Shown here: positions 55,266-58,352 of the stretch, piece by piece
How the letters are laid out: each line of letters starts with the position of its first letter
Position numbering within the stretch: position 1 is the stretch's first letter
Origin: Alphaproteobacteria bacterium
GTDB lineage: Bacteria; Pseudomonadota; Alphaproteobacteria; UBA828
DNA: 64,000 nucleotides
Assembly: GCA_965214705.1 (NCBI GenBank)
Contig: OZ243972.1
Span: 3,904,001-3,968,000, forward strand
Direction of reading: 5' to 3'
Made by a program: the position numbers and the translations under genes
Notes under the pieces: generated by a model
The model's database searches: none
The model's input: the letters and a program-made list of their open reading frames with translations, nothing else
What the model was told of the DNA's origin: nothing

Positions 55266-55511
55266 TCAGCGCCACACCGCGCGGACCACGCTCAAGTAGT
55301 TCTCGCCCAGGATACCCCGCACCTCCCGTTCGGCGTATCCGCGCTCCAGCAGGCCTTCGGTCACCTCGGGCAGTTGTTCGGGCTGGAAGAACGCGGTCAG
55401 CGGCTTCTCATAGTCTGCCCAGTATTTTTCCTTGTTTGCCTCGAAGACGCGGGTGAAGCCTTCGACGTCGTAGACGAGGTCAATCCCGAGCCCGACATGC
55501 TCGGGACCCAT
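55266..55511 (-). pseudogene. C-terminal remnant of a membrane dipeptidase (M19)
   Basis: GPEHVGLGID and LLERGY.E.EVRGILGENYL.V; N-terminal part absent. Confidence 0.75.
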
Positions 55512-56111
55512 CCAGTGGGCGGCGTCCGAGGGCGAGAGCGATACGGGTGTTGCTCGCTAGAGCATTTTTCGATCTTAGAGAATCTTTAGAATTTTCAATC
55601 GCTTGGAAATGTGATTCAAGACGCGGGCTGGTGAAGGAGGCCAGCCTGCATGACACGACCTCTTTCGAATGATCTGCGCCGCCGGGTGGTGACGGCGGTG
55701 GTCGATGGCGGCATGTCCCGCCGGGGCGCGGCGAGACGCTTCGGCATCGCGCCGTCGACGGCGATCAAGTGGGTCGATGCCTGGCGCCGCACGGGCAGCT
55801 ATCGGCCGAGGGCGCAGGGCGGCGACAGGCGCTCGCAGCGGATCGAGGCGCGGGCCGAGGTGGTCCTCGCACTGGTGGAAGAGACCCCGGACATGACGCT
55901 GGCGGAGATCACCACCCATCTGGAGGACGAGCACGGGCTGCGGGTCTCCCAGAGCACCGTATGGCGCTTCTTCCACCGCCGGGGCATCACCTTCAAAAAC
56001 AGACATGGCCGGCGTGTAGCGATCCACCCCGGATGATGAAAGTCCGGTGCCTCGGTCGAGGGAATGAACGCTGCCCCTGCGTGGCATAGCGGCATTAGAG
56101 TCACGGTCGGT

Positions 56112-56288
56112 GGAGGCGGCACAATGGCCGTCGTTTTAGTGGTGAGCACTGCTTCCCGATCAAAAACTGGCCCCGGCCGGTCGGCTCCGAGCCCCGGATT
56201 GTTCCCGGCCGCCGAGCCGTGGACGCGCGGCAAACCGCACCGCACCCGAGGCGGGTGTGTGTTCAGTCCGACCGGCCCGTCCGCCTCC
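56112..56288 (+). ncRNA. Candidate bridge RNA
   Basis: Nested stems GGAGGCGG/CCGCCTCC and GGCCGGTCGG/CCGACCGGCC enclosing segments that match the target flanks and donor junction. Confidence 0.7.
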
Positions 56289-56314
56289 GCCTTCCCCAAG
56301 CGAGAGGTGAGATC

Positions 56315-57577
56315 ATGAGAACCGACACACTGCACGTCGTCCATGCTCGTGCCGCCGGCATTGACGTGCACAAGATGCAGATCACCACATCGATCCGCAT
56401 CTGTGCACCCGGCGGCGGCGAGCCGCAGATCGCGACGCGGACCTTCGAGGCTCTGCCCAGCGGCATCGACGAGATGGTGGCATGGATGCTCGCGCGCAAA
56501 GTCGATGCCGCAGTGATGGAGGGCACCGGCATCTACTGGGTGGCACCGTTCGAAGCGCTGGAGGCGGCCGGCATCTCCGTGGTGCTGGTCAACGCCCGGC
56601 AGGTCAAGCAGCTGAAGGGCCGCAAGACCGATGTGGCGGACAGCGTCTGGCTGGCGCGGGTCTGTCAGTTCGGTCTGGCAAGCCCCAGCCACGTGCCGCC
56701 CAAGGCGTTCCGGGAGATGCGCGCACTTACCCGCTACCGGCGCGCCCTCGTCGGTCAGCGCAGCCGGGTGCGCAATCGGGTGCAGAAGGTCCTGGACCGC
56801 AGCGGCGTGCGCGTCGGCGGTGTCCTCTCCGACGTCTTCGGCACGAACGGGAGACGGGTTCTCGACGGCTTGGCTGAGGGGCTCGGACCGGACGCCATCC
56901 TGGCCTCGCTCAGCCACCATGTGGCGCACAAGGTCGAGCGGCTCGGCGACGCCCTCAGCCTCTCCCTCAGCGCTGCGGACCGCCTGATCCTGTGCGATCT
57001 GCTTCGCGAGCACGATGCGCTGGAGGAGCGCATCCAGGGGTTCGACCGGGCCATCGACGATGGCTTCGTGCCCTGGGAGGACCGCATCCTGCTTCTCCAG
57101 ACCATCCCCGGGATCGACCGGGCCTCGGCCTGCGCCATCCTCGCCGAGATCGGCCCCGACCTCGACGCCTTCGGCTCCACTGATCGGCTTGCCGCATGGG
57201 CCGGTCTCTGTCCCGGCAACAGCCAAAGCGCCGGAAAGCGCCGTGCCGCCCGCACACGCATGGGCAGCAAGACCCTGCGCGCCGTGCTCGTCGAATGCGC
57301 TCATGGCGCGGCGCGAACCCATGGCTGCCAGTTCCGCGGCTACCACAAGGCTCTCATGATCCGACGCGGTTACAAGCGGGCCATCGTCGCCACCGCGCAC
57401 AAGATGCTGCGGGTCCTCTACGTCGTGTTGCGCGACGCCAAGCCTTACTACGATCCGGAAGCCGACTACGAAGCCCTCATGGTCAGGCGAAATGCCCCGC
57501 GCTGGATCCGCATGCTCCGCCGGCACGGCTTGCTCGAGCCCGGTCGTATCCCAACTGCCATGGCCGCGACCGCCTGA
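56315..57577 (+). CDS. IS110 DEDD recombinase
   Basis: GIDVHK, MEGTGIYW, RKTDVADS, TIPGI and WAGLCPGNSQSAGK; GAGG RBS. Confidence 0.95.
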   Translation: MRTDTLHVVHARAAGIDVHKMQITTSIRICAPGGGEPQIATRTFEALPSGIDEMVAWMLARKVDAAVMEGTGIYWVAPFEALEAAGISVVLVNARQVKQLKGRKTDVADSVWLARVCQFGLASPSHVPPKAFREMRALTRYRRALVGQRSRVRNRVQKVLDRSGVRVGGVLSDVFGTNGRRVLDGLAEGLGPDAILASLSHHVAHKVERLGDALSLSLSAADRLILCDLLREHDALEERIQGFDRAIDDGFVPWEDRILLLQTIPGIDRASACAILAEIGPDLDAFGSTDRLAAWAGLCPGNSQSAGKRRAARTRMGSKTLRAVLVECAHGAARTHGCQFRGYHKALMIRRGYKRAIVATAHKMLRVLYVVLRDAKPYYDPEADYEALMVRRNAPRWIRMLRRHGLLEPGRIPTAMAATA

Positions 57578-58352
57578 AGCATTACCTGGTCGGAGCACGG
57601 TCGGCACCGGGCCACAATCCAGGGCAGCCCGAAGTCCGACCGCGTCTCCAAGCACCGCGAGCGCGGCCTCACGCCGACAACGCGACGCCTCGTCGTAATT
57701 CCCCTACTCGTGCCCGTCCCGAAGAAACTTTCACGGCAAAACGGCGCACGCCAGCGAGCAGCAACGCGCTGACGTGCTCAGGCGCAGGCGCGCCTGGGTC
57801 GAAGCCCAGCCCGGGCTCGACCCTGAGAAGCTGGTCTTCGTGGATGAGACCGGTGCTTCCACCAAAATGGCGCGGCGCTCAGGCCGAGCTTTGCGCGGAC
57901 ACCGCTGCCGCGCTCCGGTGCCTCATGGCCATTGGAAGACCACGACCTTCGTCGGCGCGCTGAGGCTGAGCGGAATGACCGCGCCCATGGTGCTCGACGG
58001 CGCCATGCACGGCGTCGCCTTCCTCGCCTACGTAGACAAGGTGCTGGTGCCGACACTTAAACCCGGCGATATCGTGGTGATGGACAACCTTGCCTGCCAC
58101 CGCAGTGCCGCCGCCCGCGAGGCTATCCAAAGGGCCGGGGCCGAGCTCCGCTTCCTGCCGCCCTACAGCCCCGACTTCAACCCGATCGAGATGGCCTTCT
58201 CCAAGCTCAAGGCCTCCCTCAAGCGCCGCGCAGCCCGCACCCTTCCAGAACTCTGGGACGCCATCGGCGAAGCCACAGACAACTTCACACCCGCCGAGTG
58301 CCAAAACTACTTCGCTGCTGCAGGATATGACCACGTATGATCGGATAGTGCT

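Follow-up and report, generated by a model that had tools for sequence, protein, structure and literature searches.

A 64,000-nt stretch of alphaproteobacterial DNA (contig OZ243972.1; hereafter, the window) contains an active-looking insertion sequence (IS) of the IS110 family at positions 56000-57739 (1740 bp), within an A7 run of an IS630-type transposase gene. The non-coding left end (LE) of this element most probably encodes a plus-strand bridge RNA in which the two target guides are arranged in reversed order relative to IS621, while the donor loop keeps the IS621 order. To our knowledge, bridge RNAs are the only bispecific guides of a recombinase. The reading is based on the observed boundaries and core of the element, the covariation of three guides with their DNA partners and four helices (P1-P4). 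The features are listed below in window coordinates, including the right end (RE), the left and right targets (LT, RT), the left and right donors (LD, RD) and the respective guides (LTG, RTG, LDG, RDG).

55650..55997, plus strand: 5' part of the interrupted IS630-type gene with helix-turn-helix domains (Pfam HTH_32, HTH_23 and others).
Ending at 55997, plus strand: LT, the last bases ..ACCTTCAAA of the IS630 5' part; intact congener copies read ATCACCTTCAAAAAAACGGCGCACGCC.
55998..55999, plus strand: left copy of the AA core, the exact place of which within the A run cannot be fixed.
56000..56314, plus strand: non-coding LE, starting with RD CAGACATGG and predicted to encode the bridge RNA.
56035..56043, plus strand: LE arm of the subterminal inverted repeat, GATGAAAGT, the complement of 57727-57734, in the loop of a predicted 5' hairpin.
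56109..56119, plus strand: 5' strand of the outer stem P1; 87.4% of cells paired, 6 of 11 pairs changed on both sides.
56126..56130, plus strand: 5' strand of P2, GGCCG, which closes the target-binding loop and pairs with 56168-56172; 95.5% of cells paired.
56130..56137, plus strand: RTG GUCGUUUU, complementary to the top strand of the core and RT, AAAACGGC (57738-57745).
56140..56158, plus strand: hairpin P3 between the two target guides, UGG.GAGC / GCUU.CCG; 89.1% of cells paired.
56159..56167, plus strand: LTG AUCAAAAAC, in the same sense as LT and the core; its last C is the first base of LE.
56168..56172, plus strand: 3' strand of P2, UGGCC.
56175..56184, plus strand: 5' strand of P4, which closes the donor-binding multiloop; 80.3% of cells paired, 5 of 12 pairs changed on both sides.
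56226..56234, plus strand: LDG CGCGGCAAA, in the same sense as LD and the core, CACGGCAA.
56256..56263, plus strand: candidate RDG UGUGUGUU, 7/8 complementary to the core and RD, AACAGACA (AA+CAGACA).
56268..56277, plus strand: 3' strand of P4.
56281..56291, plus strand: 3' strand of P1.
56315..57577, plus strand: gene of the IS110-family DEDD recombinase, 420 aa (PF01548, E 1.7e-24; PF02371, E 1.2e-19).
57727..57734, plus strand: RE arm of the subterminal inverted repeat, ACTTTCAC, immediately preceding the right end.
57732..57737, plus strand: LD CACGGC, the last bases of RE.
57738..57739, plus strand: right copy of the AA core.
From 57740, plus strand: RT AACGGCGC, the start of the IS630 3' part.
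57740..58340, plus strand: 3' part of the interrupted IS630-type gene (Pfam DDE_3, E 5.5e-33).

The left boundary was read from a comparison of the genome copies of the element, which diverge left of 55989-55999, and LE could be aligned across 25 elements. LE is 315 nt long, versus 160 nt for RE (57578-57737). A pattern screen revealed that the empty site, ATCACCTTC-AAAAAAA-CGGCGCACGCC, is uninterrupted in four of nine loci of relatives (L169-L172). It contains seven A, compared with five A at the left and four A at the right junction in the window; thus, the element brings two A and the core dinucleotide is AA. It was confirmed that the core is alike at both junctions and that insertion occurred without duplication, and the simplest parse is a target TTCAAA-AA-AACGGC and a donor CACGGC-AA-CAGACA with no target duplication. 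The A-rich core of the original prediction, which was made from the letters of the window alone, was thereby narrowed to two bases. The sequencing runs, namely one metatranscriptome (0.12 share of words) and four runs of unrecorded type, were used as contigs only; contigs of two runs of unrecorded type (X3 and X5) join 55998 to 57738 in diverged IS630 copies. With the A7 run intact, the HTH and DDE parts of the IS630-type gene lie in one frame (TTC AAA AAA ACG GCG ..). The insertion explains why the gene is split in the annotation (55650-58340) and predicts the landing sites of further copies. The genome itself contains three full copies of the element, 99.9-100% identical over its length, and one truncated copy. 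Copies c1, c2 and c4 share one site, each in a different IS630 copy (three of the four genome copies), and c3 is a full copy at an unrelated site that has only the left flank ACCATCAAAAA in common with the first.

The recombinase combines an N-terminal DEDD RuvC-like domain (DEDD_Tnp_IS110) with a C-terminal Tnp domain (Transposase_20). It passes the NCBIfam model NF033542, 'IS110 family RNA-guided transposase', with 268 bits at a cut-off of 140, and is distantly related to the PDB transposases of IS621 (E 2.7e-16) and ISCro4 (E 5.5e-13). The gene starts at the ATG at 56315, upstream of which a GAGAGG ribosome-binding site is located, and relatives also start at that ATG; the 315-nt non-coding left end of the prediction precedes this codon. 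A mechanical list of open reading frames extends the gene upstream to a GTG at 56219 (56219-57577), across the donor domain of the RNA. Of 8000 candidates in the protein search, 3029 matched at E up to 1e-40; among the 120 matches listed, there is no protein with an IS name, and the best plasmid match is 39.5% identical. A 341-aa IS110-family gene on the plasmid CP056656.1 was considered as an IS1111-type reference, but its ends were not definable, it could not be named and it was not used.

Related elements were collected from two sources. A scan of species genomes revealed 326 relatives among 405 candidate stretches, and the best 80 of these yielded 79 loci that fall into 18 sequence clusters, several of which have more than one copy per genome. 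A further 80 loci came from a metagenome scan; 22 of these were found with an RNA profile, and both target guides could then be read in 12 by a motif search. The ends of the elements were read by comparing copies and then by conserved end motifs, and the comparison set for the guides comprised about 25 related element families. The nearest relative of the window element is L087, with 79% aa identity.

The helices P1-P4 are supported by compensatory changes. The outer stem of the original prediction, GGAGGCGG (56112-56119) with CCGCCTCC (56281-56288), was found to be part of a longer helix formed by 56109-56119 and 56281-56291, and the stem of the second domain, GGCCGGTCGG (56175-56184) with CCGACCGGCC (56268-56277), was recovered as P4. 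The small AGTG/CACT hairpin that had been placed between the target guides was wrong, and the conserved pairing is that of UGG.GAGC (56140-56147) with GCUU.CCG (56151-56158). With this one exception, the coordinates and match counts of the prediction proved correct. RNAalifold analysis of 22 representatives predicted 35 pairs, 16 of them with compensatory changes, and the P2 pair at columns 28/77 is changed on both sides in 15 of the 22 sequences. The structure tested was the minimum free energy (MFE) fold of the window sequence without the guide-guide helix: 76.8% of its cells are paired, compared with 38.8-44.8% for slid partners, and none of 500 shuffles reached its covariation score. The inner hairpins of the donor domain score lower than P1-P4, partly as a result of the alignment. 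Of the 22 sequences, 20 have a GU at columns 30/75. Read from the opposite strand, many of the G-U pairs would become C-A, which places the RNA on the plus strand. The folding energy of the RNA region is only moderately unusual: z = -3.33 for 56100-56300, with 0 of 200 shuffles as good, and z = -1.20 for the whole 315-nt LE, with 13 of 100 shuffles as good. The Rfam search of 55500-58300 at E up to 1 showed no curated family covering the RNA; the sole match, ctRNA_pGA1, is sub-threshold (20.8 bits versus a gathering score of 45) and located on the opposite strand.

The left target guide was clearly confirmed. The predicted identity of TCAAAAA (56160-56166) to the left flank (55993-55999; 7/7) extends to the full guide AUCAAAAAC, which is identical to the left junction ATCAAAAAC in c2 and c3 and agrees with that in c1 at 8/9 positions. 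In the LE alignment, almost all families have AAAC at the end of the segment that separates P3 from the 3' strand of P2, and the 4-5 variable bases before AAAC-[C/U]G are those of the left flank of the respective family. Between sister families with 97-98% identity along the element, both guide and flank are switched (L010, GAUCUAAAC/CATCTAAAC, versus L013, GAUAUAAAC/CATATAAAC), and a similar switch of the guide was found between L018 (CACCAAACC) and L060 (ACGCAAACC). The guide GUAUAAUC of L087 equals its own junction GTATAATC at 8/8 positions. In a permutation test of 23 guide families, the guides agreed with their own flank at 4.26 of 8 positions versus 1.82 for the flanks of other families, and 0 of 100000 permutations were as good. 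It was also observed that the left target guide GCAGCAAAC in L081 and L086 is identical to the right end of the element itself.

The right target guide was confirmed statistically. The segment GTCGTTTT (56130-56137), predicted to match the reverse complement of AAAACGGC (57738-57745) at 7/8 positions, pairs at 8/8 when one G-U is allowed. In the register test, the segment was anchored at the hairpin, three linker bases were dropped and six bases were compared with the right flank, which could start at any of the first four positions after ..GC. For 21 families with 63 sites, agreement with the own sites was 4.00 of 6 versus 3.08 across families, and 0 of 200000 permutations were as good. The result holds for linkers of 2-4, lengths of 5-7, and with or without three near-duplicate guides (18 settings, each at most 1/20000). 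Both controls, namely the reversed uncomplemented segment (14795/20000 permutations) and a comparison of the segment with the left flank (18966/20000), were null. The best cases are L090/L091 (ACCTTC, 6/6), the L063 family (ATGCGG) and L088 (ACCGC), and the signal is carried by seven families that rank first. At the site of copy c3, the guide pairs only with the A run and forms one wobble. The right flank is therefore weakly read, as in IS621, whose published description gives a right target guide of 4 nt.

In the donor domain, the left donor guide was clearly confirmed. The segment CGCGGCAAA (56226-56234) matches the right end CACGGCAAA at 8/9 positions, as predicted, and two variable positions of guide and donor agree in 14 of 14 distinct pairs (GG in 8, AG in 5 and AA in 1). 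The predicted right donor guide, TGTGTGTT (56256-56263), is indeed complementary to AACAGACA at 7/8 positions, but it is plausible only. In comparison with L087, two of its positions change in step with the donor, U to A opposite A to T, twice. Accounts of IS621 and ISPpu10 describe the pairing of this guide there as discontiguous and mismatched. The loop CCCCG-NNN-UGU-N-CCCGG (56194-56208) was also considered as a right target or right donor guide; it was rejected because the variable bases of RD and RT are not reflected in it and because, in the consensus fold, its UGU is paired to ACG. Covariation of guides with flanks, suggested with the original prediction as a check, was thus observed across about 25 families for the left target, right target and left donor guides, and was not consistent for the right donor guide. 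It is this covariation across related elements, and not the length of the matches, that supports the view that they are not due to chance.

The right target guide (56130-56137) is therefore located 5' and the left target guide (56159-56167) 3', opposite to IS621, as had been proposed. The suggestion that this could be a distinct architecture is valid with respect to IS621; the same order has already been reported for IS1111 seekRNAs (PMC11187229). In the proposed RNA, the outer stem P1 would enclose a target-binding loop and a donor-binding multiloop. The former would consist of P2, the right target guide, the P3 hairpin, the left target guide and P2 again, and the latter of P4, extra hairpins, the left donor guide (CACGGC + AA), a hairpin, the probable right donor guide (AA + CAGACA) and P4. 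The excised element would form a circle with the junction ..CACGGC-AA-CAGACA.. (..TTTCACGGC-AA-CAGACATGG). By analogy with IS621, the RNA would bring this circle together with the target ATCAAA-AA-(AACG..), and the two would be recombined at the AA core without duplication. We infer that the RNA is made and bound by the recombinase and that the chemistry is that of IS621; the recombinase would be programmable. The target loop may be regarded as a circular permutation, with P3 as the counterpart of the basal stem and P2 as that of the distal stem-loop of IS621. Since the 3' ends of both guides point at the core and the orientation of insertion is the same, the reversed order would be most simply explained in this way.

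The same layout was found in relatives. Family C comprises 22 metagenome loci (L118, L120 and 20 more) of about 1490 bp with 36-42% aa identity, and its core is AG, compared with AA here (left end AG-CAAC.., right end ..CCCATC-AG). Inspection by eye showed the same arrangement of its loop in terms of a top-strand guide, a hairpin and a bottom-strand guide. In the same inspection, all four variable bases of the left target guide agreed with the flank in 14 of 17 loci and three of four in the other 3 of 17; six guide variants track the left flanks, and CU, complementary to the core, is present in the 5' segment. A joint change of donor guide (CCGAUCAG) and right end (CCGATCA) was seen in L158. 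Tentatively, we propose that a large unnamed clade (proteins of about 415-420 aa with an upstream RNA, common in marine and sponge-associated metagenome-assembled genomes, MAGs) combines a permuted target loop with a canonical donor loop, although the odds are slightly against so broad a claim. The clade has short guides and an A-tract core.

A sister element, B, which is 68% identical to the window element, is present in two copies in the same genome, C1:363589-365014 and C1:425563-426988 (L005 and L006). Its left target guide is GACAAAAC and its flanks are ..GACAAAA and ..ACACAAAA. The B type was found in 33 copies in one alphaproteobacterial MAG and in 4 copies in a second MAG, with 37 loci in the cluster, and its target is loose, (G)AC-AAAA-R. 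Head-to-tail tandems of the B type were observed in L020, L024, L029, L031 and L036 (at about 2140-2150 in each) with the junction CACGGCAA(A)ACAGTCATGG. The B right end with the core, GGCAAAA, differs by one mismatch from the target GACAAAA, so B can insert beside itself.

A subterminal inverted repeat of 7-10 bp was also found, with its LE arm about 35 nt inside the element end. Comparison by eye showed concerted changes of the two arms from family to family: CATGAAACAG/CTGTTTCACG in B, TGTAACT/AGTTACA in L080 and TGAAATA/TATTTCA in L083. This repeat could serve as a binding site for a protein at the two ends, or it could provide an additional contact of RNA and DNA beside the left donor.

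The alternative that survives best is that no new permutation is involved and that the LE encodes an IS1111-type seekRNA or bridge RNA lying upstream, i.e., a described RNA type in an unusual position. According to the text of Siddiquee et al. 2024 (PMC11187229), IS1111 seekRNAs carry the top-strand match on the 5' side of the bottom-strand match. The same text places the non-coding region as a rule downstream of the gene in IS1111 and upstream of it in IS110 types, not without exceptions; in a few IS1111 members it is upstream. The text of Durrant et al. 2024 indicates that many IS1111 RNAs hold the donor-binding bases in a multiloop, and the donor domain described here is a multiloop; the covariation of the 7-10 bp subterminal repeat between families points in the same direction. 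On the other hand, the transposase of 420 aa falls in the range of 395-455 aa given in PMC11187229 for the subgroup containing IS110 itself, and not in that of IS1111 (330-350 aa). In addition, the non-coding region is upstream, with the long LE opposed to the short RE, and the homology of the loops would rest on published descriptions. We consider this alternative rather unlikely.

The second alternative is that the 5' segment (56130-56137) is scaffold and not a guide, so that, besides the A run, only the left target would be read by the target loop; the right flank would be unread or read elsewhere, and the segment would be able to pair with the A-rich left target guide. The MFE fold indeed pairs GUUUU (56133-56137) with AAAAC (56163-56167). 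Several observations that weigh against the reversed-order reading count in favor of this alternative or at least weaken the register test. In the B family, 33 independent sites have a nearly random right flank with almost no preference beyond a purine at RT1 (32/33) and RT3 (25/33). A first test, in which the longest contiguous complement was taken in any register, was flat and uninformative (own 3.42 versus cross 3.17), and 6 of 21 families rank 11th or worse when their sites are compared with those of other families. The linker length was chosen post hoc, although the result survives lengths of 2, 3 and 4, and the families are related, so the permutation counts overstate independence. The register of the guide relative to the core differs by 1-3 bases between families, and about half of the families have a single U where two are needed to pair with AA. 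Against the scaffold explanation stand the outcome of the register test in all of its settings together with the two null controls, and the segments of L063, L083, L088 and L090, which have no complementarity to the left target guide and yet match the right flank at 5-6 of 6 positions. Apart from the left target guide, no part of the loop is more variable than this segment. The scaffold explanation thus appears improbable, and the segment is better regarded as a guide.

Further points against the reversed-order reading concern the right donor guide, which does not track the two variable RD bases in the more distant families of the LE alignment and is partly located inside a hairpin of the MFE fold, and transcription. 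In the IS621 type, the promoter of the RNA is formed at the RE-LE junction of a circular intermediate. No sigma-70 consensus, the one promoter type scanned for, was found in 55900-56400 or at the natural tandem RE-LE junction of the relative L024. The sole RNA run found is a metatranscriptome with contigs of relatives and cannot show expression. That the left end is only a promoter and a 5' untranslated region with four coincidental matches would suit their small length (7-9 nt), the unremarkable folding of the whole LE and the lack of an Rfam family, but it has next to no chance of being correct in view of guide-flank covariation in three segments, compensatory changes in four helices and a layout kept in family C at low protein identity with a different core.

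Some observations were made on the sequencing runs and on transcription signals. No circle RE-LE junction was found in the contigs of the runs compared with the window. In the bin 56162-56238, the depth was high in the RNA run X1 and in the two runs of unrecorded type X3 and X5, and not in X2; this most likely reflects the conserved donor domain of many related elements. X1, a coral metatranscriptome, contains a 108-nt contig of a related bridge-RNA region (56164-56207) with different guide letters; it comes from a library that may contain DNA and says nothing on expression. At 56115-56132, a GC-rich stem with GTTTTAG after it resembles a terminator; it is composed of P1 and P2 strands and of the U run in the right target guide, and was taken as spurious.

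Bridge RNAs are being engineered for large genome rearrangements, and nearly all mechanistic work has been done on IS621 and ISCro4. A target loop wired the other way round, next to a donor loop that is not, shows which parts of the scaffold are dispensable for the geometry, and a natural permuted clade would provide a second template for guide design and bear on the relation of the IS110 and IS1111 layouts. If the clade is real, it would link the IS110-type and IS1111-type RNA layouts and indicate that the scaffold tolerates either connection of the two guide strands of a loop; this would be of direct use for the engineering of split or permuted bridge RNAs. The element itself is low in specificity, as it reads 4-5 variable bases and an A run and its right side is weak, and it offers a lesson in architecture rather than a tool.

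The reversed order as such is already known for IS1111, and what is new is its combination with an upstream RNA and a long protein. In the running text of the literature searched, no account was found that expressly gives an upstream RNA with a 420-aa transposase the reversed order of target guides. There is a real chance that the layout is already drawn in published figures or supplements, for example, in Fig. 6d, Extended Data Fig. 10c or Supplementary Data 2 of Durrant et al., and it may also be drawn in Fig. S12 or among the 86 models of the 2026 preprint 10.64898/2026.10.21.760802. The texts of both works note that many predicted bridge RNAs deviate from the IS621 structure, and neither text states the order of the guides.

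In a comparison with known systems, the window element was found to share with IS621 and ISCro4 (IS622) a recombinase of the DEDD RuvC-like and Tnp domains, an RNA (predicted here) encoded ahead of the gene in the long left end, a division into a target and a donor domain, guides that include the 2-nt core, and insertion without target duplication. In all of them, the left guides are in the top-strand sense and the right guides complement that strand; in the donor domain, the left donor guide is followed by a hairpin and then by the right donor guide (probable in the window element), and the right target guide is short and weak. As described in the text of PMC11208158 and PMC11208160, the target-binding loop of IS621 consists of a stem, the left target guide (50-58), a stem-loop and the right target guide (77-80), and its donor-binding loop of a stem, the left donor guide, a stem-loop and the right donor guide. 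The target loop described here differs in having the right target guide, the hairpin and the left target guide in this order. In addition, the outer stem encloses both domains, the donor domain forms a multiloop and contains extra hairpins, the core is AA and not CT, the left target is read through 4-5 variable bases and the A run compared with 7 + 2 in IS621, and the recombinase has 420 aa compared with 326 aa, with a match of only E 2.7e-16.

With the IS1111 seekRNAs of ISEc11, ISPa11 and ISKpn4 (PMC11187229), the element shares a top-complementary segment located 5' of the bottom-complementary one and subterminal inverted repeats, and with many IS1111 RNAs (Durrant et al.) donor-binding bases in a multiloop. 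The subterminal repeats of IS1111 elements are 7-17 bp long, and that of the window element is 7-10 bp long with its LE arm about 35 nt inside the end. IS1111 elements differ in their downstream RNA and transposases of 330-350 aa, compared with an upstream RNA and 420 aa here. The IS110-type ISEc21 (PMC11187229) likewise has an upstream non-coding region and a target inside the transposase gene of another IS, namely IS3-family genes for ISEc21 and the A7 run of an IS630-type gene for copies c1, c2 and c4. According to the same text, its bottom-strand match comes first and its top-strand match is 3', which is the opposite of the order in the window element.

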